Position numbers and translations under genes: made by a program
Part shown: in pieces, positions 30,788 through 58,772 of the stretch
Layout: every line of letters starts with the position of its first letter
Position numbering within the stretch: position 1 is the stretch's first letter
The notes under the pieces: model-generated
The model's input: only the letters and a program-made list of their open reading frames with translations
What the model was told of the DNA's origin: nothing
The model's database searches: none
Assembly (NCBI GenBank): GCA_902625455.1
Contig: CACOBL010000001.1
Coordinates: 244,191-308,190 of the forward strand
Length of the DNA stretch: 64,000 nucleotides
Reading direction: 5' to 3'
Source: an uncultured Candidatus Actinomarina sp.
Lineage (GTDB): Bacteria; Actinomycetota; Acidimicrobiia; Actinomarinales; Actinomarinaceae

Positions 30788-30892
30788 TGTTTAATGATAT
30801 CAGGTGATTATCAAAATTCTAAATGGACTCTTTTTTAATATTTTTTTATTTTTATTTTGTTTAAATTCAGAATGATGTTATATTTATATCAA

Positions 30893-30914
30893 ATCTAAGT
30901 AAAAACACTTAGAT
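30893..30914. promoter_or_regulatory. Perfect 8-bp inverted repeat ATCTAAGT-N6-ACTTAGAT, candidate HspR (HAIR-like) operator
   Basis: Seen directly in the sequence, about 40 bp upstream of the ATG at 30953. It resembles the HspR-associated inverted repeat CTTGAGT-N7-ACTCAAG. A TATATA -10-like element and the SD GAAAGG follow. Confidence 0.45.
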
Positions 30915-30952
30915 TATATATATTAATTTGATAAGATTAGAAAGGTAAAAAA

Positions 30953-31153
30953 ATGAGTGGATCATTAACTGCATCACAAGTTAAGCCGGGTATACGAAGG
31001 TCGAAAAAATACACATCTGGTCGAGTTTGCGCATTTGATACTTGTGAAACTGTTATCAGCGTTTATAACAAAAAGAAGTTTTGTTTTCTGCATGCTCCTA
31101 TCTCCTATCCGAGAGTAAGAGGGCACTTGGCAAGAGAACAAGAACCGACTTAA
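30953..31153 (+). CDS. Small basic CCCH protein (paralog A), first gene of the dnaK locus
   Basis: 66 aa with motif GRVC-x4-C-x12-C-F-x-HAP-x-YPRVRG. About 55% identical to the ORF at 56205..56399. Own SD. 27 nt upstream of dnaK. Confidence 0.6.
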   Translation: MSGSLTASQVKPGIRRSKKYTSGRVCAFDTCETVISVYNKKKFCFLHAPISYPRVRGHLAREQEPT

Positions 31154-31180: not shown

Positions 31181-32989
31181 ATGGGAAAAGCTGTTGGAAT
31201 CGATTTAGGAACAACAAATAGTGTTGTAGCGGTCTTAGAAGGTGGTGAACCATCGGTTATTGCTAATGCAGAAGGTAATAGAACTACCCCATCTATTGTT
31301 GCTTTTAAGTCTGAAGAAGTCCTTGTCGGCGAACTTGCAAAAAGGCAAGCTATTACCAACCCAGACAACACAGTGAGATCTATTAAAAGACATATCGGGA
31401 CTAATTGGAAAGAAAAGTTTGAAGGTAAAGAATATACACCCCAAGAAATTTCAGCAAGAATACTACAAAAATTAAAAAGAGATGCAGAATCTTATTTAGG
31501 TGATGAAGTTACCGAGGCAGTAATTACTGTGCCAGCATACTTCAACGATGCTGAAAGACAGGCAACTAAAGAGGCTGGTCAAATCGCAGGTTTGAATGTT
31601 TTAAGAATAATTAATGAACCAACAGCAGCATCATTAGCTTATGGACTTGAGAATAATGAAGATCAAAAAATCCTAGTATTTGATTTAGGTGGAGGTACTT
31701 TTGATGTTTCAATTCTTGAGATATCAGAAGGTGTCTTTGAAGTTAAGTCAACGTCTGGTGATTCGAAACTGGGAGGAGATGATTGGGATCAAAGAGTGAT
31801 GGACTGGCTAATAGATAAATTTAAGTCTTCTACAGGAATTGATTTATCAAAAGATAAAATGGCCATTCAAAGAATACAAGAAGGTGCTGAAAAAGCCAAG
31901 ATTGAGCTATCTTCAACCACCGAAACTGAGATAAACTTGCCATTTATCACTGCCAATGATGCTGGTCCTCAACATCTACTTGAAAAGTTGAGTAGAGCTG
32001 AGTTTGAAAAAATAACAGCTGACTTAGTAGAACGTACTAAAGCTCCTGTTGAAAATGCTTTATCTGACGCAGGTATGAAATACTCCGACATTGATCACAT
32101 TATTTTAGTTGGTGGATCAACACGTATGCCATCCGTACAGCAACTTGTAAAAAATGTTACTGGCAAAGACCCTCACAAAGGAGTTAATCCCGATGAAGTT
32201 GTAGCTTCTGGTGCAGCTATTCAAGCTGGCGTCTTAAAGGGAGATGTGAAAGATGTACTTTTGTTAGATGTTACACCGCTTACTTTAGGTGTTGAAACAA
32301 AGGGTGGAATTATGACAAAAATGATTGAAAGAAATACAACTATTCCAACCAAAAGATCGGAAGTTTTTAGTACTGCTGACAACAATCAGACTCAAGTTGA
32401 AATTCATATATTACAGGGTGAGAGAGAAATGGCAGCTGGCAATAAATCTCTAGGTAGATTTACTCTTACAGACATCCCTGCTGCAATGGCTGGGACTCCA
32501 CAAATTGAAGTAACATTTGATATTGATGCCAATGGAATCGTAAATGTTAATGCCAAAGATCTTGGCACTGGAAAAGAACAAGCTATAACAATTACTGGTG
32601 GAACTGCGCTTGAAGAAGATGAAATCGATAGGATGATAAAAGATGCAGAACAACATGCAAATGAAGATGCTAAAAAGAAAGAGCTTGTTGAGACAAGAAA
32701 CATGGCAGAAGGTATGGTTACTTCAACTGAGAAAATGCTCGATGAAAATAAAGATAAAGCTACTGAAGAAGAAGTAACAGCAATCACTGAAGCAAATGAT
32801 AAATTAAAAAAGCTTCTTGAAAATGAAGATTTATCTCTAGATGATCTGAAAAATGGAATTGATGAGTTGGCTAAAGCAAGTCAATCTTTTGCAGAAAAGC
32901 TTTATGCTGAAGCCCAAAACGATGTACCGGACTCATCTGATGATGGTTCAGAAGATGTAGTCGAAGGTGAAGTTATAGAGGATGAATAA
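31181..32989 (+). CDS. dnaK: Chaperone DnaK (Hsp70)
   Basis: Hsp70 signatures [24 protein letters not shown]. Confidence 0.97.
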
Positions 32990-33461
32990 AGAAGAACCCT
33001 CTACTGATGAAGTAGAAAATGATTCAGATGAAACAGTTGAAGAATCAACCGTTTCCCTTTCCGAATACGAAAAAATTAAAGATGACTATTTAAGACTTGC
33101 GGCTGATTTTGATAATTATAAAAAAAGAGCTGAAAAAGAGAAGGAAAATATTGGATCTGCATCAGTAGCCTATTTCGTTAATGCTATTTTTCCACTTATT
33201 GATAACTTTGAAATGGCTATGGCACAAGAAGAAGTTGTTAAAGAAGTAGATGCACTAAATAGTATGCTTATCTCAGTTCTTCAAAGCTTACAGGTCGAAG
33301 AAGTAGGAGAAATTGGAGAAAGCTTTGATCCAGCTCTCCATGAAGCTGTTGAACATTCTGGTGAGGGTAATTCTCAGATAATCGAAGCTGTTCTACGTAA
33401 AGGATATCTATTTCAGGGTAGTTTAATTCGGCCTGCAATGGTGAAAGTAAAAAGTGAGTAG
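32982..33461 (+). CDS. grpE: Nucleotide exchange factor GrpE
   Basis: Overlaps the dnaK stop. GrpE motifs ([28 protein letters not shown]). Confidence 0.85.
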
Positions 33462-34539
33462 AGATTGGTTAGACAAAGACTTTTACGCCACCCTGGGCGT
33501 ATCACAAGAGGCAAGTACTGAAGAAATTAAGAAAGCGTATAAGAAGCTAGCGAGAGAAAATCATCCAGACTTGAACCCAGGAGATACAGAAGCGGAAAAA
33601 AAATTCAAAGAAATTTCAGAAGCTAGTTCAGTCCTCGGAGATGAAAAGAAAAGACAAGAGTATGATCAAATTCGTGCAATGGGTGCTTCAGGATTTGGAG
33701 GATTTGGTGGACAAGGGTTTAATGTAGAAGATTTTGGTGATTTATTTGGAAATCTCGGAGATATATTTGGATTCGGAGGTGCTGGAGGGAGAAGAAAAGG
33801 ACAAACTTATCAGACTAATATAAACATATCTTTCAATGATGCTGCTTCAGGAGTAGAAAGTGTAGTTCCTCTTCGAAAAGAAGTTATGTGTTCTTACTGT
33901 AAAGGAACTGGAGCAGATAAAGGCGAAGCTTTCCATAGGTGTAATATTTGCAACGGAAGTGGCCAGACAGCTTCAAATCAAGGATTCTTTTCTTTTGCTC
34001 AAACATGTTCAGCTTGCAAAGGGCAGGGAAATATAATTGATAAAGCATGTAAAACCTGTAGAAGTTCTGGATCTGTAATACAGAATGAGTCAATAAAAGT
34101 AAAAGTACCTGCTGGAGTAGATAACGGAACAGTTATTAGACTACGTGGAAGAGGAGGTCCTGGAGATACAGGCGCACCAGATGGAGACTTATTAGTTCAA
34201 GTTGCTGTTGAACCACACAAATTTTTCAAAAGAAATAATAGCGATTTGATTCTTGAAATTCCATTACTATTTACAGAGGCGGCTCTTGGTGCAAGTGTAA
34301 AAATTCCGACTCTTAAGAAAGCTGTAACATTAAAAATTCCTGCAGGTACTCCAAGTGGAAAAACTTTCAAAATAAAAGGTGAGGGAATTGCTCCGCAAGG
34401 CAGAAGACCTGGAGATTTATTTGTAAAAGTTTATATAACCCCTCCAACAAATTTATCAAGATCTGCAAAAAAACATTTAGAAAACTATAGAGATCAATTT
34501 GAGTCTGGGGACTCTCCAAGGGATTATTTGTATGAATAA
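33454..34539 (+). CDS. dnaJ: Chaperone DnaJ
   Basis: J-domain HPD (ENHPDLNP), G/F-rich linker, four CxxCxGxG zinc motifs, C-terminal substrate domains. GTG start overlaps the grpE end. Confidence 0.9.
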   Translation: MSRDWLDKDFYATLGVSQEASTEEIKKAYKKLARENHPDLNPGDTEAEKKFKEISEASSVLGDEKKRQEYDQIRAMGASGFGGFGGQGFNVEDFGDLFGNLGDIFGFGGAGGRRKGQTYQTNINISFNDAASGVESVVPLRKEVMCSYCKGTGADKGEAFHRCNICNGSGQTASNQGFFSFAQTCSACKGQGNIIDKACKTCRSSGSVIQNESIKVKVPAGVDNGTVIRLRGRGGPGDTGAPDGDLLVQVAVEPHKFFKRNNSDLILEIPLLFTEAALGASVKIPTLKKAVTLKIPAGTPSGKTFKIKGEGIAPQGRRPGDLFVKVYITPPTNLSRSAKKHLENYRDQFESGDSPRDYLYE

Positions 34540-34921
34540 TGAAGACTCAAAAGCAATATATTTTATTTCTGTAGCATCAACTCTTTCAGGAATCCATCAA
34601 CAAACAATAAGAACATACGAACAAAAAGGTTTAATTAAGCCTTTTAGAACAGGCGGGGGAACAAGAAGATATTCACAAGAAGACATAGATAAATTAATAC
34701 AGATCCAAAATCTTTCTCAGAGAGGTATAAATTTAGATGGAATAAAAATTATATATGAAATGAAAGATAAGATAGAAGAATTACAAAGTAAAATAATCTC
34801 TTTAGAACACGAAATGTCCACTCAAAAGGTAGATTCTAGGAATAAAGAACGAGAAATACACCAAAGTTACAAAAATGAAATTGTTAAAAAAACTAACAAA
34901 TCAATCAAAAAAACAAATTAA
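34532..34921 (+). CDS. hspR: Heat-shock repressor HspR (MerR family)
   Basis: MerR HTH (IYFISVASTLSGIHQQTIRTYEQKGLIKPFRTGGGTRRYS) plus a C-terminal coiled coil. Last gene of dnaK-grpE-dnaJ-hspR. Start placed at the internal ATG (MNNEDSK); the track start at 34499 overlaps dnaJ. Confidence 0.8.
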   Translation: MNNEDSKAIYFISVASTLSGIHQQTIRTYEQKGLIKPFRTGGGTRRYSQEDIDKLIQIQNLSQRGINLDGIKIIYEMKDKIEELQSKIISLEHEMSTQKVDSRNKEREIHQSYKNEIVKKTNKSIKKTN

Positions 34922-35162: not shown

Positions 35163-36326
35163 ATGAACTCTGTTCAGAGAATTACAAATTTAGATTTTAT
35201 TAGAGGTTTTGCTCTACTCGGAATACTTGTAATAAACGTAATAGCATTTGGGCTTCCGCTTACTGCAACTACAAATTCATCAACATTCGGAATTGACAAT
35301 ACTCTTGATTGGATAGTTTTGGTAATTTCATCAGTATTTTTTGAGCAAAAAATGATGGGTTTATTTTCAATGCTTTTTGGTGTTGGCATAATAATATTTT
35401 TAGAAAATGCAGAAAAAAAGACTTCGAAACCAAAAACACTAGCTATTTGGAGAAATGTTTTATTATTTTGTTTTGGGCTGATTCACCTATCAATTTGGGA
35501 AGGTGACATACTTGCACCATATGCAATTTGTGCTTTGTTACTAATCATATTTCCTAAAGTTGAAAATCCGAAATTCATATTTGCTGCAATAGTTTTTTTG
35601 ATGACAGCATTTATTTTAATAACAAACTATTTCTCTTCGTTATACGATACAGGTGGAAACTTGATTTCACAAGAAGAGTGGGTTCTTTTAGCAAGTAAAG
35701 GCGGTGCATTATCATATGGTAAGTTTTGGTTTCCAGATTCAGAATCTTGGGGCAATCTTGTTGCCATATGGTGGTATCTCGGAGCATTTTTTAGAGCAAT
35801 ATCTTTAATGCTATTTGGTTTTTTGTTATACAGATTAAACATTATTCAAGGTAAAAAAGAAATTTCATATTATAAAAGAATCTCTCTTGTTGGATTTTCA
35901 ATAGGTTTACCATTGGCTATCTACAGTATCTATTTGCTTATTAGTTCAAACTATGATCCATCTGTTCTTTTCATCAGCAATATTTTTAACACTTTATCAG
36001 TAATACCAATGGTTTTAGGATATACAGGACTTTTGACAATTCTTAATTTGAAACTAAAAGATTCTATAAGTAACAGGTTAAGAGCATGTGGTAAGTTGGC
36101 ATTTACAAATTATATTACCCAGACAATCTCTGGAGTTTTTATCTTAGGTGCATTTGGTTTAGATACGTTTTCAAGATCACAATTAATGGTCTATGTATTT
36201 TTAGTTTGGATAATCCAGATAGCTTGGTCAAAACCAATTTTAGATAGATTTAATTATGGACCTCTAGAATGGATATGGCGTAAATTAACTTACAGTTTTA
36301 TCAAGAAACATAAGTTTACGAATTAA
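35163..36326 (+). CDS. DUF418 (YeiB-like) membrane protein
   Basis: N-terminal LDFIRGFALLGILVINV is characteristic of DUF418. About 10 TM. Confidence 0.55.
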   Translation: MNSVQRITNLDFIRGFALLGILVINVIAFGLPLTATTNSSTFGIDNTLDWIVLVISSVFFEQKMMGLFSMLFGVGIIIFLENAEKKTSKPKTLAIWRNVLLFCFGLIHLSIWEGDILAPYAICALLLIIFPKVENPKFIFAAIVFLMTAFILITNYFSSLYDTGGNLISQEEWVLLASKGGALSYGKFWFPDSESWGNLVAIWWYLGAFFRAISLMLFGFLLYRLNIIQGKKEISYYKRISLVGFSIGLPLAIYSIYLLISSNYDPSVLFISNIFNTLSVIPMVLGYTGLLTILNLKLKDSISNRLRACGKLAFTNYITQTISGVFILGAFGLDTFSRSQLMVYVFLVWIIQIAWSKPILDRFNYGPLEWIWRKLTYSFIKKHKFTN

Positions 36327-37464
36327 ACATATTGGTAATAACTCTACTTATGTATTCAGCAAAAATAGGTTTTGCATCAATCCAAGATATATTGTAAGTA
36401 ATCTCAAAAGCCTCTTCAAAATCTTTTCCTGATGCAATTACTGTATACATATGCATAGCAGAATCAGCACCTGACATTGCATTCATAGCTTCAACAGTAA
36501 GATAACCAATTGAATAGCCAAGAACATAATCAGGATTTTTTGTACAAACACCCGGAATACTCTTGTTGTAATAATCTAATACCGCAGATGTTGAATAATC
36601 ATTAAATGGAGCTTGTATATGTCTACCAGTAACTTGTGATGACCTCATGTCTAAATATTCTTCATATGTTCCAACTCCCAGTGATATTCCAGCTGCATGA
36701 GCAATTCCCTCATTTAACCAACAAGGTGAGGCATCATTTGCACTCTGTTGAGGATTTCTAGCATTTCCTATCCACTGAGATGCAACAACTGAATGTGTTA
36801 CTTCATGAATATGTAAAGCACCATATCTATAGGCATCTATAGAATCTGCACTATTTATACCAAATACACCAACCCCAAAATGAGGAGGTTCTTGGTAAAT
36901 TCCAGAATTAGCTCCACTACAAATACCGTCACGACATGGAGCTCTTGCCATACCTCCTTCAAAACCAGTAGTGGTTAATTCATTTATGGCCCAATCTAAA
37001 TCTTCATAGTTGTAAAAAAATCCATAGTACTTTTCTGGAAGATTAAAGTTTTGCCAAAAACTAATGCCTTTTTGGATATATTTTTCATTATCTTCAAAAT
37101 ACAAATCAGTAGAAGGACCAATATTTAATATGATTTCAAAAGAATCATTTTCAAATTTATCATTTTCATTAGATATTCTTTGATAATCATTCCAGGCAAA
37201 TTTTGGTATATTATTAAGATTTGAAATTAATTCGCTGATGCTTACATATTCACAATCGTCACATTTATTTTTTACAATTGAGGTTGTAGTTGTGTCCTGA
37301 ATTGTAGTTGTAGTTGTGTCCTGTATTGTAGTTGTAGTTGTAGTTGTAGTTGTTGTTGTGTCCTGAATTGTATCATCTGATGAATCTTGAACAACATTAC
37401 TCTGACTTTCTGCTCCCCCACAAGTAATAAATATAAACAGAATAAATAATGATAATTTTTTCAT
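36316..37464 (-). CDS. Secreted lipoprotein with Thr-rich repetitive linker and HExxH zinc-metallopeptidase-like domain
   Basis: Signal peptide plus lipobox (FITCGG). (T)n-IQD repeats. HIHEVTHS (HExxH) in the C-terminal domain. Confidence 0.5.
   Translation of the reverse strand: MKKLSLFILFIFITCGGAESQSNVVQDSSDDTIQDTTTTTTTTTTTIQDTTTTTIQDTTTTSIVKNKCDDCEYVSISELISNLNNIPKFAWNDYQRISNENDKFENDSFEIILNIGPSTDLYFEDNEKYIQKGISFWQNFNLPEKYYGFFYNYEDLDWAINELTTTGFEGGMARAPCRDGICSGANSGIYQEPPHFGVGVFGINSADSIDAYRYGALHIHEVTHSVVASQWIGNARNPQQSANDASPCWLNEGIAHAAGISLGVGTYEEYLDMRSSQVTGRHIQAPFNDYSTSAVLDYYNKSIPGVCTKNPDYVLGYSIGYLTVEAMNAMSGADSAMHMYTVIASGKDFEEAFEITYNISWIDAKPIFAEYISRVITNMFNS
37280..37375. repeat. Imperfect tandem nucleotide repeat [(GTAGTT)n GTGTCCTGAATT]x3 encoding the Thr-rich linker (coding, minus strand)
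   Basis: Seen directly: gtagttgtagttgtgtcctgaatt units repeated with variable GTAGTT copy number. Confidence 0.7.
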
Positions 37465-56139: not shown

Positions 56140-56168
56140 AATTGTATTCTAAAATATTTATGTTAAGC

Positions 56169-56186
56169 TTGTGAATATATTCACAA
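56169..56186. promoter_or_regulatory. Perfect 18-bp palindrome TTGTGAATATATTCACAA (core TGTGA-N6-TCACA, CRP/FNR-family consensus)
   Basis: Seen directly, about 20 bp upstream of the ATG at 56205. A TTGCTT-16-TAAAAT promoter-like pair lies just upstream (56129-56156). Confidence 0.45.
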
Positions 56187-56204: not shown

Positions 56205-56399
56205 ATGACAGACGGATTAAAAGCGAGTCAAATTAAGGGTGGAATTAGACCTTCAAAGAGTTTTGACCAGGGCAGAGTATGTAAAGATGAAACTTGCACT
56301 ACTCAATTAAGTATTTACAACAAAAGAGATCATTGTTTTAATCATGCTCCGGTTAAATATCCGAGAGTAAGAGGCAGAATCCTTCAAGAAACTGCTTAA
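56205..56399 (+). CDS. Small basic CCCH protein (paralog B), head of the copZ-copA locus
   Basis: 64 aa. Same GRVC-x4-C-x12-C-F-x-HAP-x-YPRVRG architecture as 30953..31153. Confidence 0.6.
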   Translation: MTDGLKASQIKGGIRPSKSFDQGRVCKDETCTTQLSIYNKRDHCFNHAPVKYPRVRGRILQETA

Positions 56400-56444
56400 G
56401 TTTTAAAGACCCCCCTAACGAAATCTCCCCCAAGAGGTTTCTTA

Positions 56445-56475
56445 TAAGCCCCTAAGAAATTAGGGGCTTATTTAT
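56445..56475 (+). terminator. Stable hairpin (11-bp stem, GAAA loop, T-run) between the small ORF and copZ; preceded by two C-rich CCCCTAA tracts
   Basis: taagcccctaa-gaaa-ttaggggctta followed by tttat. ccccctaa (56411-18) could pair with the same 3' arm, which suggests an alternative structure. Confidence 0.45.
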
Positions 56476-56503
56476 AGCCTATTAAGTATTATTATTGTTA
56501 ATT

Positions 56504-56713
56504 ATGAATGTTGTATTTACAGTTCCTGAAATCAGTTGTGGTCATTGCAAGGATACAATTGAATCTACATTAGACAATGTCGACTCTATAGAAAGTGTTT
56601 CGGTTGATATTGAGAAGAAATCTGTTGAGGTTGTCTCATCTGCTGATTTAGATATGATAAATGTTTCTCAACTGTTAGATGAACAAGGCTACACAGTTGT
56701 CCAATCAGAATAA
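56504..56713 (+). CDS. copZ: Copper chaperone CopZ (HMA domain)
   Basis: M-x-C-x-x-C type motif (SCGHCK) in a ~70-aa ferredoxin-like HMA fold. The track's TTG start at 56495 was replaced by the ATG. Confidence 0.75.
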   Translation: MNVVFTVPEISCGHCKDTIESTLDNVDSIESVSVDIEKKSVEVVSSADLDMINVSQLLDEQGYTVVQSE

Positions 56714-58772
56714 GACTTTAAATTTAGACATTGAGGGCATGACATGTGCTGCATGTGCTGCGCGCATTGAACGAGTAATTTCAAAAGACCAAGACGTTTT
56801 AGATGTTTCTGTAAGCTTTCCTCTAAAGTCTGCAATTGTTGATATTAACGATGACGATAGTTTTGATGTTAATAATTTAATTAAAAAAGTAAACAACATT
56901 GGTTATAAAGCTAAAGAGACAGACAGTCTTGGCTCAAGTAAAAATGTTAAGTTTAAATTTGTAATGCCTTTCTTGTCACTATTTTTAACTTATATTCTCA
57001 GGTTCACATTTGAAGCTGGGCTTGATCTATTATCTTATTCGATAGGCTCTTTTGTTATATTGCTATTGGGCAGAAATTTTCATATTTCAGCTTTTAAAAA
57101 AATTAAATACCTTGACTTTAATATGGATACATTAATTTCAATTGGTAGCTTGAGTGCTCTTGCTATTTCATTACTACCAAGTAATGTTCTAGGTTCAGAC
57201 ATATCGATTGCAAATAATAAAATGTTCTTAGATACTGGTGCTTTTATAGTTTCATTTATATTAATTGGTAAAGCAATAGAAGATAAGGTTATAGAGGAAT
57301 CTGTAAATGAATCTGAATCTATAAAAACCAGAATGCCCAAAACATTAATTGTTGAAAGAGATGGACAAAATCTAGAAGTACCCATTAAAGAAGTTACAGT
57401 AGGTGATTTGTTTCTAGTAAGCCCTGGGCAGATTATTCCAGTTGATGGTGCTGTTTTAGATGGTTCTACAACTGTTGATGAAAGCTTATTGACTGGAGAA
57501 TCAATTCCTCTAGTAAAAAATCCTCAAGACTCAGTAGTTGGTGGAAGTATTAATTTAGATGGTGCAATAAAGGTTTCTGTGCAAGAGTCTTATCAGAAAT
57601 CTACTTACAATGTAATTGAAGAATTAATTAGAACAGCTCAAGCAACTAAACCGGAAATTCAAAAATCATTAGACAAAGTTACTCAATACTTTGTTCCAGT
57701 TGTTCTTTTGATTAGTGTTCTGACTTTTCTGTTTAGATTTTATGTAAGTGACTACGCATTGTTAGACGCCTTAAAAAATTCAATAGCAGTACTTGTAATT
57801 GCGTGCCCTTGTGCATTAGGTCTAGCAACCCCTATAGTTTTATTTAAAACTGCAACACTAAGTAAAAAAGATGGGTATTTATTCAAAAATTTTGATATTT
57901 TACAAAGATTTGGTGATATAAATACGCTCATCTTTGATAAAACGGGAACACTGTCATCTGGTATTTTTAAGATATCAAAAATTGAAGACAATTATACAAA
58001 TTTAACTGAGAGCGAAATTTTACAATTAATTGCAAGTCTTGAAAACTATTCTCAGCACCCAATAGCAAGAAGTATTGTTTATGAAGCAGAATTACAAGAC
58101 TTGGAGTTACTTAAAGCTGATAATGTTAAAGAAGTTCCGGGGTTAGGAATACAAGGAAAAGTAAATAATAGAAAAATTATTATTGAAAAAAACATAGAGT
58201 CGCAAGAGTCTTCGTTGATTATTAAAATTGATGAACAAAAACTTTATCTCTACATAGAAGAAGAAGTATCTGTATCATCAAACTTCTTTGAGAAATTAAA
58301 AGGTGAAAAAGAAATAATTATTCTTTCTGGAGATAAAGAAATTAATGTTGAAAGGTTTGCTAAAAGTATTGGGGTCAAAAAATATCATTCAAATAAATCT
58401 CCAGAAGAAAAATTAGAATTTATAAAGAACAAACAAAAAAATGAAAAAGTTATATATGTTGGTGATGGAGTAAATGATTCCCCTTCAATCAAGCAAGCAG
58501 ATGTTGGAGTAACAACCTCTAGTAGTAGTCAAATAGCACAAGTAGCTGGAGATATTCTAATTCACAAGGGCGGTTTAGATACAATATCTGAAATTTTTAA
58601 ATTATCAAAAAAATCTAAAAGCCGAATCTATCAAAACCTATTTCTTGCTTTTGTTTACAACACTTCAATGATTCCATTAGCTGTGTCCGGGGCAATTACT
58701 CCAAACTTAGCAGCTTTAGCAATGGCCTTATCAAGCATTTCTGTAGTGTTAAATTCATCAAGAAAACTATAG
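56679..58772 (+). CDS. copA: Copper-translocating P1B-type ATPase
   Basis: N-terminal HMA GMTCAACAARIE, TM6 CPC (ACPCALGLATP), DKTGTLS, GDGVNDSP. Confidence 0.9.
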   Translation: MNKATQLSNQNKTLNLDIEGMTCAACAARIERVISKDQDVLDVSVSFPLKSAIVDINDDDSFDVNNLIKKVNNIGYKAKETDSLGSSKNVKFKFVMPFLSLFLTYILRFTFEAGLDLLSYSIGSFVILLLGRNFHISAFKKIKYLDFNMDTLISIGSLSALAISLLPSNVLGSDISIANNKMFLDTGAFIVSFILIGKAIEDKVIEESVNESESIKTRMPKTLIVERDGQNLEVPIKEVTVGDLFLVSPGQIIPVDGAVLDGSTTVDESLLTGESIPLVKNPQDSVVGGSINLDGAIKVSVQESYQKSTYNVIEELIRTAQATKPEIQKSLDKVTQYFVPVVLLISVLTFLFRFYVSDYALLDALKNSIAVLVIACPCALGLATPIVLFKTATLSKKDGYLFKNFDILQRFGDINTLIFDKTGTLSSGIFKISKIEDNYTNLTESEILQLIASLENYSQHPIARSIVYEAELQDLELLKADNVKEVPGLGIQGKVNNRKIIIEKNIESQESSLIIKIDEQKLYLYIEEEVSVSSNFFEKLKGEKEIIILSGDKEINVERFAKSIGVKKYHSNKSPEEKLEFIKNKQKNEKVIYVGDGVNDSPSIKQADVGVTTSSSSQIAQVAGDILIHKGGLDTISEIFKLSKKSKSRIYQNLFLAFVYNTSMIPLAVSGAITPNLAALAMALSSISVVLNSSRKL

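Follow-up and report, generated by a model that had tools for sequence, protein, structure and literature searches.

Introduction

The WhiB-like proteins, small Cys-rich metalloproteins, occur only in Actinomycetota and the phages that infect them; genomes encode several paralogues each, and the proteins are connected with stress and with sigma factors. RbpA, likewise small and restricted to Actinobacteria, belongs to the SigR regulon in Streptomyces, where it binds zinc through three cysteines and one histidine. Mycobacterial Ruc (Rv0991c), a small zinc-Cys protein expressed together with the heat-shock machinery, combines a four-Cys zinc ribbon with a long disordered tail and, like Hsp33, is described as a redox holdase that works by releasing zinc. 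At the head of actinobacterial copZA, directly upstream of copZ, the usual regulator is CsoR. Here we describe sp1 and sp2, two small genes in a 64,000-nucleotide stretch (the window; 33% G+C) of an uncultured Candidatus Actinomarina sp. (assembly GCA_902625455.1, contig CACOBL010000001.1, positions 244,191 to 308,190 of the forward strand), one located ahead of dnaK and the other ahead of copZ and copA. Both are members of a large undescribed protein family and not of a known one. The family is distributed over Acidimicrobiia, other uncultured Actinomycetota and many phage contigs, and its promoters and gene order point to the SigH/SigR stress regulon.

Results

Two paralogous genes of an undescribed family

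sp1 (30953..31153, + strand) encodes a basic protein of 66 amino acids (aa) with a predicted Cys3His zinc knuckle (R24, C26, C31, Y38, N39, C44 and H47), and sp2 (56205..56399, + strand) encodes a 64-aa paralogue of the ancestral type, the one that is conserved widely in the family. A preliminary description of this DNA had placed two open reading frames (ORFs) with about 55% identity and a common Cys/His skeleton at these positions. Both ORFs exist: BLASTP aligned their products with 34/62 identities (55%, E = 2e-26), and the pattern GRVC-x4-C-x12-C-F-x-HAP-x-YPRVRG is readable directly in either sequence. The C-termini continue for 17-19 residues past His47 with no further Cys or His ligands, and a six-frame hidden Markov model scan revealed no third copy in the window. 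Comparison of 56 orthologous sp1 loci and 23 orthologous sp2 loci yielded ratios of non-synonymous to synonymous differences (pN/pS) of 0.12 and 0.057, respectively, and corresponding substitution rate ratios (dN/dS) of ~0.05 and ~0.03; synonymous sites were near saturation (pS 0.65 for sp1, 0.58 for sp2), and non-synonymous divergence amounted to 0.078 and 0.033. Identity between loci is 89-98% for sp2 but only 45-70% for its neighbours copZ and copA. Because dN/dS is 0.03-0.05 over 56 and 23 loci, sp1 and sp2 are genuine protein-coding genes under strong purifying selection.

Searching 1.84 billion representative proteins with a profile built from close relatives returned 893 clusters at E <= 1e-3 (93 at E <= 1e-10), nearly all of them proteins of 55-85 aa. 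In a 50-sequence alignment with a mean identity of ~30%, the seven residues listed above for sp1 are invariant, and S36, R54, R56 and G57 are nearly so. The core skeleton R-x-C-x4-C-x6-Y-N-x4-C-x2-H, and with it the spacing C-x4-C-x12-C-x2-H, is also invariant in a set of 115 non-redundant sequences, in which both flanking arms are conserved as well: an N-terminal arm with [LV]-[RK]-G, R at -9 and then [RPK]-[PS]-[KR]-x-[YF]-x-x-G ahead of R24, and a C-terminal arm of the form H-x-P-x-[RK]-[FY]-P-R-x-R-G. These proteins are strongly basic, with a median pI of 10.2 and a median net charge of +8. AlphaFold2 (AF2), whose model was confident with a deep alignment only, predicted a short beta-hairpin and little besides (mean predicted local distance difference test score 85.8), as expected for a knuckle that is held together by a metal; zinc binding is predicted from the four invariant ligand residues together with this model.

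Throughout, the source annotations of family members read "hypothetical protein", the named members being labelled Candidatus Actinomarina, Acidimicrobiia bacterium, Actinomycetota bacterium or bacterium BMS3Abin02, and in many NCBI genomes that encode it the gene is not annotated at all. Neither sp1 nor sp2 matched Pfam or NCBIfam even at E = 10, and scans of both proteins and their relatives against Pfam, NCBIfam, PHROGs and PADLOC gave no family assignment; the faint library matches were to phrog_10853 (unknown function) and to C-x4-C...C-x2-H motifs. Sequence searches of the PDB with two profiles returned solely the SBP-box structure 8j49, the only solved structure matched, at a non-significant level (hmmsearch, E = 0.41, 13.4 bits), and literature searches on motif and genomic context found no paper describing the family. 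The preliminary description had been unable to place the Cys3His arrangement in a named family, and no Pfam or NCBIfam match, solved structure or paper was found that would place it; the known ribosomal or other housekeeping zinc-ribbon family that it had named as a refuting outcome likewise did not emerge from Pfam or NCBIfam. No fusion to a known domain was seen among the relatives. Some longer relatives of 100-150 aa carry a second putative metal module, C-x2-C-x19-25-H-x9-11-C-E, past the P-R-x-R-G arm (two-finger subfamily; P0088, P0132, P0145, P0154, P0168, P0178, P0188, P0192, P0194 and P0200).

SigmaH-type promoters and gene order outside Actinomarinales

Scanning metagenome contigs with a degenerate DNA pattern of the invariant residues yielded at least 120 loci. 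Of the 120 listed, 110 had an ORF that clearly belongs to the family, 37 of them low-GC and 73 high-GC. Outside Actinomarinales the gene orders are diverse. They include M3 peptidase - small gene - CopZ - CopA - PAC2 (L090), small gene - CsoR - CopZ - CopA (L092), enoyl-CoA hydratase - small gene with Fur and NicO nearby (L081, L087 and L220), small gene - ETF (L093 and L218), small gene - PPIase (L215), ABC transporter - small gene (L223) and a small gene near NfeD and WhiB (L217). By tblastn, copZ lies within 4 kb of the family gene in 9/73 high-GC loci, with CsoR in between in five of these.

In locus L221, the small gene follows an extracytoplasmic function (ECF) sigma factor and a zf-HC2 anti-sigma factor and precedes cydAB. 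This sigma factor is identified as SigH_actino (NCBIfam TIGR02947, 262.9 bits against a cut-off of 251.55); the best match of the anti-sigma factor is the RsrA model (53 bits, below the cut-off of that model). Homologues of the L221 sigma factor were found by tblastn ~600-800 nt upstream of the family gene and on the same strand in 25/73 high-GC loci. Upstream sequence of 950 nt or more was available for 53 high-GC loci; in 22 of these the sigma gene has the same orientation as the family gene and ends 330-600 nt short of the zinc motif, the family gene standing directly behind sigH-rshA. These sigH-linked members fall into at least three divergent subfamilies with the C-termini ...YPRLRGRIV, ...FPNYRGKRL and ...AVPRTRGKKIA.

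The promoter consensus of SigH/SigR is GGAAYR-N17-18-GTT in M. tuberculosis (PMC4803200), and that of SigH in C. glutamicum is GGAA(T/C)-N18-19-GTT, the GGAAC form of which is also read by SigE (PMC10012870). Among 90 upstream regions, of 300 nt each and from distinct high-GC family genes, 38 contained the motif GGAA[TC]-N17-19-GTT, mostly 35-100 nt from the start codon. It was absent from the reverse complement (0 matches), present in 4.1% of random 300-nt windows from the same loci and upstream of only 5/302 other genes of at least 120 aa in these loci (Fisher p = 1.5e-22). Essentially all members linked to enoyl-CoA hydratase and many of those linked to copZA have it. In seven loci (L221, L294, L308, L335, L352, L364 and L371) the motif is located within the 3'-terminal part of rshA, ~97 nt ahead of the small gene, so that even behind sigH-rshA the small gene would have an ECF-type promoter of its own. 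Promoter motif and position behind sigH-rshA together point to membership of the family in the SigH/SigR regulon. The linkage to stress operons proposed in the preliminary description is borne out across the family by sigH-rshA and sigmaH-type promoters, a route that it had not foreseen, and does not extend to the phage copies.

One subfamily, with the tail ...RGSRPRELPRPNRTY..., occurs in a recurrent block of NicO (not in all cases), a Fur-family regulator (- strand), enoyl-CoA hydratase (+) and the small gene (+), with ETF and MnmA downstream (L081:2224-5204, L087, L220, L262, L277, L302, L314 and L360). Without exception, these genes have GGAAT-N18/19-GTT 60-95 nt upstream.

sp1 in the dnaK operon

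The putative sp1-dnaK promoter (30857..30884, + strand), read by eye, consists of a -35 element TTGTTT (30857-30862), a 16-nt spacer and a -10 element TATATT (30879-30884), and TTGCAT-N16/17-TATATT stands at the same place in relatives of the sp1 locus, a TTGCAT-like -35, a TATATT -10 and the dyad right behind it being present in every sp1 locus. It is directly followed by an inverted repeat resembling HAIR (30885..30922), with 16-nt arms (30885-30900 and 30907-30922) that are 88% complementary and a dyad core AATCTAAGT-N6-ACTTAGATT (30892-30915). Among 56 related loci the arms are fixed and the spacer is free, which is the signature of a protein operator. The consensus of HAIR, the operator of HspR, is CTTGAGT-N7-ACTCAAG (PMC6102357). 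The sp1 dyad has the inner AGT/ACT core in common with it and, as in HAIR, follows the -10 element, whereas outer bases and spacing differ; the more divergent relative L049 reads CTTAGT-N7-ACTAAG at this site. HspR is probably the protein that binds here, being the most economical ligand because hspR ends the same operon. The preliminary description had assigned a palindrome to each paralogue, and both were located, at 30885-30922 for sp1 and at 56169-56186 for sp2, each unique in the window.

Downstream of sp1 follow dnaK (31181..32989, + strand; Pfam HSP70, E = 5.9e-248), grpE (32982..33461, +; Pfam GrpE), dnaJ (33454..34539, +; Pfam DnaJ, DnaJ_CXXCXGXG and DnaJ_C) and, as the last gene of the unit, hspR (34499..34921, +; Pfam MerR_1, E = 1.3e-16), a MerR-family heat-shock repressor whose position matches that in the actinobacterial dnaK operon. 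Since the 27 nt between the sp1 stop and the dnaK start hold a ribosome-binding site and neither hairpin nor terminator, sp1 would be the first cistron of the heat-shock operon. In the window, proC lies upstream of sp1 and is divergent from it. A scan of GTDB genomes with a narrow alignment identified 216 stretches that encode relatives, and the best 80, all Actinomarina-type, were analysed. As far as the contigs extend, all 57 sp1 loci have the order CCG/Fe-S protein (-), proC (-), sp1, dnaK, grpE, dnaJ and hspR (+), and sp1 and sp2 copies stand 21-25 kb apart on the same contigs. In the metagenome loci, tblastn with the reference neighbours placed dnaK next to family genes in low-GC loci only, the linkage being confined to Actinomarinales. 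Thus, the place of sp1 as first gene of the dnaK-grpE-dnaJ-hspR unit, as previously described, holds in 57/57 Actinomarinales loci, and its conservation upstream of dnaK ends with this order and does not apply elsewhere in the family.

When the relatives were scored against sp1 and sp2, the 63-65-aa proteins of other Acidimicrobiia were consistently closer to sp2, and none of the relatives scored from outside Actinomarinales was clearly sp1-like. Moreover, sp2-type genes have one synteny block in common, inositol phosphatase - amidohydrolase - M3 peptidase - sp2, which copZA may or may not accompany. Because of both, sp2 appears as the ancestral type and sp1 as a lineage-specific duplicate. 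sp1 is evidently an Actinomarinales-specific copy that was recruited into the dnaK operon, between the HAIR-like operator and dnaK.

sp2, its operator and its 3' RNA

The putative sp2 promoter (56142..56169, + strand), also read by eye, has TTGTAT at -35 (56142-56147) and an extended -10 element TGT-TAAGCT ending at 56169; in relatives of the sp2 locus the -35 position reads TTGCAT and GTTAAGC is conserved. Just past the extended -10 element and overlapping the predicted transcription start lies a perfect 9+9 palindrome (56169..56186, TTGTGAATA/TATTCACAA), a putative operator. It contains TGTGA-N6-TCACA, the consensus of CRP/FNR-type regulators. GTTA(A/C)(G/T)CTTGTGAATATATTCACAAAGT is unchanged upstream of sp2 in 22/23 loci with variable flanks, the remaining locus (L077) having one substitution inside the palindrome. 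High-GC relatives lack this palindrome.

sp2 is followed by copZ (56495..56713, + strand; Pfam HMA), encoding a copper chaperone, and copA (56679..58772, +; Pfam HMA, E1-E2_ATPase and Hydrolase), encoding a P1B-type ATPase; by Pfam, an M3 peptidase gene lies upstream of sp2 and a PAC2 protein is encoded downstream of copA. In 23/23 Actinomarinales sp2 loci, contig extent permitting, copZ follows sp2, then copA and PAC2, with the M3 peptidase ahead where present. The 95-nt spacer between sp2 and copZ folds into two hairpins (-27.2 kcal/mol, z = -3.95) and contains a C-rich 3' element (56410..56471, + strand) made up of a C6 run (56410-56415), hairpin 1 (56420-56441, with CUCCCCC) and hairpin 2 (56444-56471), a 12-bp stem followed by AUUUAU that resembles a terminator. 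A TTGACA/TATAAT consensus scan of the window flagged neither the sp1 nor the sp2 promoter, and a consensus terminator scan did not flag the 3' hairpin of sp2; for this reason the assignment of all three rests on comparative conservation and folding energy.

In other Actinomarinales species the hairpins are absent and the spacer measures ~50 nt, so co-transcription of sp2 with copZA would depend on the species. Since copZA lies within a conserved synteny block, its adjacency may be inherited rather than functional. CsoR stands between small gene and copZ in at least six lineages (L092, L270, L306, L318, L321 and L362), which means that the small protein would not be needed as copper regulator in those relatives. 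The order described earlier, with sp2 ahead of the copper chaperone/ATPase pair, is real. In the window, however, sp2 has its own promoter and palindrome and is insulated by structured RNA with a putative terminator, and it does not appear to be simply the head of copZA.

Conserved structured RNA directly 3' of sp2-type genes was seen both in 33%-GC Actinomarina and in 60-70%-GC Acidimicrobiia (window 56410-56471, L090:5193-5285, L291:2727-2812, L215:4210-4305, L092:5206-5290 and L306:2930-3015; further L318:716-841(-), L320, L321 and L270). Hairpin 1 exposes CUCCCCC(U)CCCC, resembling an anti-Shine-Dalgarno sequence, and hairpin 2 forms a terminator-like stem, GAGRGCCCCGG...CCGGGGCYCUC, whose loop also has CCUCC in some lineages. 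Two or more runs of at least four C were present in 23/57 3' regions of sp2-type genes versus 4/91 in other subfamilies, and hairpin 2 covaries in 6/12 pairs. Rfam gave nothing at gathering score in the window, the matches of the 3' RNA being weak only (alpha-proteobacterial ar14/ar7 anti-Shine-Dalgarno small RNAs, E = 0.13). The RNA may be a 6C-like small RNA derived from the 3' untranslated region.

Phage-encoded members

Applied to IMG/VR, the same degenerate DNA pattern identified at least 120 viral loci, and all 120 viral-contig matches listed translate to family members. The contigs are those of genuine phages, with terminase, portal, capsid, protease, DnaB, primase, methyltransferase and lysozyme genes. 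In a dominant group (~80/111 loci), the small gene is the first rightward gene, divergent from a terminase-portal module; in a second group it is located between DnaB and primase, and in a third between portal and prohead protease. Throughout the dominant group (L095-L214, e.g. L116:3780-3808), a TATACT(A/T) box stands 8-9 nt before the ATG and a Shine-Dalgarno sequence is lacking, and the mRNA is therefore probably leaderless or nearly so; promoter sequence takes up nearly all of the ~30 nt that separate the small gene from its divergent upstream neighbour. Most family-bearing phage contigs have 30-38% G+C, and Streptomyces phages have the terminases that come nearest to the dominant one (26-28% identity, 29/39 records); base composition and terminase together fit phages of marine Actinomarina. 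No tblastn match to sp1 or to a phage copy was obtained in the cultured-phage GenBank set (INPHARED). A sigmaH-type motif was found upstream of 2/108 phage copies, palindromes of the sp1 or sp2 type were not found near phage copies in the first 120 viral loci, and of seven viral matches to the sp2 palindrome none had a family gene.

The exact host dnaK-operon dyad, ATCTAAGT-N6-ACTTAGAT with the spacer GTAATT, occurs on five phage contigs (L246:5214-5235, L250:801-822, L253:4153-4174, L257:6184-6205 and L258:7744-7765). On these contigs a TATTAT -10-like element precedes the dyad, which is ~650 nt away from the family gene, on its downstream side, within a region of ~1 kb that holds few genes; 31 viral contigs have the dyad at all, and these five combine it with a family gene. 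This arrangement suggests that the five phages place an early promoter under HspR-type heat-shock control of the host. In the dominant group the large terminase (L116:1129-3015(-) and homologues) has an N-terminal Cys4 finger, C-x4-C-x13-C-x3-C (KTCANKGCEKKFTAKTNKKLYCSDQC); its first spacing recurs in the small protein, whose gene is the divergent neighbour.

Elsewhere in the window, 36316-37464 (- strand) encodes a predicted 382-aa protein, unrelated to sp1 and sp2, with a lipoprotein-like N-terminus and long Thr runs broken by an IQD repeat (TTTTTTTTTTIQDTTTTTIQDTTTT); the Thr-rich stretch is probably a heavily O-glycosylated linker.

Discussion

With moderate confidence, we propose that members of this family are stress-induced, zinc-stabilised basic factors that bind nucleic acid or a transcription complex. 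The two parts of this proposal differ in strength. That sp1 and sp2 belong to one family, and this family to a stress regulon, we regard as very probable, and the molecular mechanism is put forward tentatively. In it, the protein would be induced by stress, and its Cys3His zinc knuckle would hold two basic arms that bind DNA, RNA or an RNA polymerase-promoter complex. As a small accessory factor of transcription or of the nucleoid, it would resemble RbpA, WhiB or DksA/TraR-type proteins in role and not in ancestry. The thiolate-zinc site could lose its zinc to oxidants or copper, which would render the activity sensitive to stress, and phages may carry copies of their own to impose or bypass the same control. 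The regulatory or sensor role suggested in the preliminary description, for example as a redox/metal-sensitive adaptor or anti-repressor, would be compatible with these data. On this reading, the ancestral family gene would have been a member of the SigH regulon and would have been rewired in the streamlined Actinomarinales, sp1 to HspR and sp2 to a regulator that binds its dyad.

A more far-reaching version is conceivable, although we consider it doubtful as a whole. Here the protein would be an accessory factor that belongs to the transcription apparatus or the nucleoid of actinobacteria and that phages share, with the Cys3His site as a thiol- and copper-sensitive switch. It would serve the sigmaH-RshA, HspR and, by position, CsoR circuits alike, as a shared output or feedback element that the phage copies would hijack, and the CCUCC-loop RNA 3' of sp2-type genes would be a co-evolving regulatory partner.

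Several observations weigh against the proposed role as a stress-induced factor of the SigH regulon. Upstream of sp1 a sigmaH-type promoter is absent, both from the window and from the other loci (0/56), and upstream of sp2 the motif occurs in 2/23 loci, in both inside the M3 peptidase gene, and not in the window. Because neither gene has such a promoter, the stress link of this window rests on the HAIR-like operator and on homology; homologues of SigH, CsoR and Fur are absent from the window. The strict motif was present upstream of sigH itself in L221 and in 1/21 other loci, so few that co-induction with the sigH operon and autoregulation of sigH are unsupported. Part of the context signal, namely that of copZA and of enoyl-CoA hydratase with Fur, is possibly synteny inherited among related lineages. 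The phage copies reside in packaging, replication and head modules with no stress context. Finally, all likenesses to known fingers are below significance, and so is a likeness to the RbpA tail (hhalign of A3 against M. tuberculosis RbpA, E = 0.27, 7 columns, N-terminal motif only).

As an alternative to a nucleic acid-binding factor, the protein could be a redox-regulated holdase or DnaK co-factor, which upon oxidation or heat would release zinc, unfold, capture clients and hand them over to DnaK/DnaJ. The presence of sp1 in the dnaK-grpE-dnaJ unit of all Actinomarinales loci, the ties of the family to sigH-rshA and sigmaH-type promoters and the predicted Cys-rich metal site would all suit such a function. 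It is nevertheless unlikely, as a strongly basic (+8) protein of ~65 aa has no hydrophobic or long disordered segment for client binding, linkage to dnaK is seen in one order only, phage copies are found in packaging and replication modules, and the invariance of R24, Y38, N39 and P-R-x-R-G speaks for a specific partner and not for promiscuous clients.

We also consider it improbable that the family represents small zinc proteins that associate with the ribosome or with translation under stress, in the manner of ribosomal proteins with a zinc ribbon, of hibernation factors and of the ribosomal proteins that phages encode. Small size, high basicity, predicted zinc binding, extreme conservation and the frequency of phage-encoded copies would be compatible with this function, and published SigH regulons include translation genes (PMC4803200). 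Ribosomal-protein models in Pfam and NCBIfam, however, gave no match, family genes were never found in ribosomal-protein operons in ~30 distinct contexts, and the window contains two paralogues, each with its own regulation.

A role as metal handler or as copper/zinc sensor appears quite unlikely. In this case sp2 would bind Cu(I) or Zn through its Cys3His site and regulate or supply copZA, replacing CsoR in Actinomarina and possibly binding the TTGTGAATATATTCACAA palindrome itself. Adjacency of sp2-type genes to copZ-copA in 23/23 Actinomarinales and ~9/73 high-GC loci, the lack of a CsoR homologue in the window, the ~50-nt spacer of species without 3' hairpins and the Fur-family and NicO genes near another subfamily can be cited in its favour. 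This is countered by CsoR itself standing between small gene and copZ in at least six lineages, by the terminator-like hairpin ahead of copZ in the window and by the many sp2-type genes with unrelated neighbours (PPIase, NfeD, ABC transporter and cydAB). In addition, the palindrome is absent from high-GC relatives, and a metal buffer is at odds with a single metal site and with invariant residues that are not ligands.

Each paralogue has its own highly conserved dyad at the predicted transcription start, and the sp1-type dyad recurs ~650 nt from a family gene on five of the 31 dyad-bearing viral contigs, which would agree with autoregulators or anti-repressors, sp1 binding AATCTAAGT-N6-ACTTAGATT alone or with HspR, and sp2 binding TGTGA-N6-TCACA. 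We judge this very unlikely: the sp1 dyad is HAIR-like with hspR in the same operon, making HspR the simpler ligand, high-GC family genes have sigma-factor promoters instead of comparable dyads, the first 120 phage loci lack such dyads, and a monomeric 65-aa protein with a single knuckle would be an unusual reader of a dyad of 18-22 bp. That sp1 and sp2 are chance ORFs or a non-functional regulatory leader peptide of dnaK, as short ORFs ahead of regulated operons can be, is already refuted by their dN/dS of 0.03-0.05, their paralogy at E = 2e-26, the 893 homologue clusters with common invariant residues and the members that stand alone in many contexts.

Genes for small proteins often go unnoticed, and this family comprises hundreds of clusters, yet no library model, structure or paper was found for it. 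It is among the most conserved genes of its neighbourhood, is tied to the main actinobacterial sigma factor of thiol and heat stress and is carried by probable phages of the abundant marine Actinomarina. Should it act on transcription or nucleic acids, as we propose, the SigH/RsrA, HspR and CsoR networks of poorly studied Actinomycetota classes would gain a new member, and the family would join WhiB as a new case of a metalloregulator common to actinobacteria and their phages. With 65 aa the protein is easily synthesised, which makes metal analysis, structural work and binding assays practicable.

Among described proteins, several could be set aside. For HNH endonucleases there is one weak match (phrog_144, E = 0.024, one phage member), seven residues separate C31 from N39, none of them a conserved His, and the beta-beta-alpha-Me arrangement with DH ahead of the Asn is missing. 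The models of the ribosomal zinc ribbons bL31, bL32, bL33, bL36, bS14 and bS18 did not match the family in Pfam or NCBIfam, and none of the ~30 contexts contained ribosomal neighbours. CsoR (PF02583) occupies the same place directly upstream of copZ as the small gene, but its model does not match the family, and relatives carry true CsoR beside the small gene, as a gene in its own right.

Among zinc fingers, EsV_1_7_cys (PF19114), CxC6 (PF18721) and Zf_WRKY19 (PF24906) have a C-x4-C-x(n)-C-x2-H knuckle of the same style, and weak Pfam matches were obtained in 5/50 (EsV_1_7_cys), 14/50 (CxC6) and 4/50 (Zf_WRKY19) members, with best E-values of 0.0095-0.089 among the 50 relatives. These are eukaryotic or giant-virus repeats or transposase-associated domains with roles that are unknown or DNA-related; sp1 and sp2 had no match to them at E <= 10, and the matches of relatives were below the Pfam gathering threshold. 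The Zn1 site of the SBP-box (SPL5, PDB 8j49) shares the ligand order Cys-x4-Cys...Cys-x2-His and L-S/T plus an aromatic residue before the third Cys, and both are basic, the SBP-box binding DNA. Its spacing, however, is C-x4-C-x16-C-x2-H, the middle spacer of the family being 12 and not 16. It also has a second (C2HC) zinc site, which sp1 and sp2 lack and from which the additional module of some longer relatives differs in spacing, and it is a plant transcription-factor domain of ~76 aa as opposed to a stand-alone bacterial or phage protein. Spacing, second zinc site and profile score all place the family outside the SBP-box. Because the matches are non-significant and the middle spacer differs (12 vs 16), the relation to these fingers is a resemblance in type and not membership.

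Compared with Ruc and Hsp33, the family has a Cys3His site, is shorter and is strongly basic, and homology was not detected in any library. The N-terminal tail of RbpA, MADRVLRGSRL (sequence checked against PDB 6bzo, chain 6bzo_J), resembles family tails of the form M..D..VLRGSRP, a resemblance that we offer as a hypothesis and that is not statistically supported. RbpA differs in the order of its metal ligands and in having sigma-interaction helices, and the family, with 60-70 aa about half its size, has no helical C-terminal domain and no significant similarity to it. WhiB-like proteins have four Cys (C-xn-C-x2-C-x5-C), a [4Fe-4S] cluster and a G[VI]WGG turn, as opposed to three Cys and one His with no WGG in the family, which has no sequence similarity to them and no match to Pfam Whib (PF02467); a separate WhiB gene lies near the family gene in L217 and L188. 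In their distribution, in contrast, as small metalloproteins shared by Actinomycetota and phages, the WhiB-like proteins appear to be the closest analogue of the family described here.

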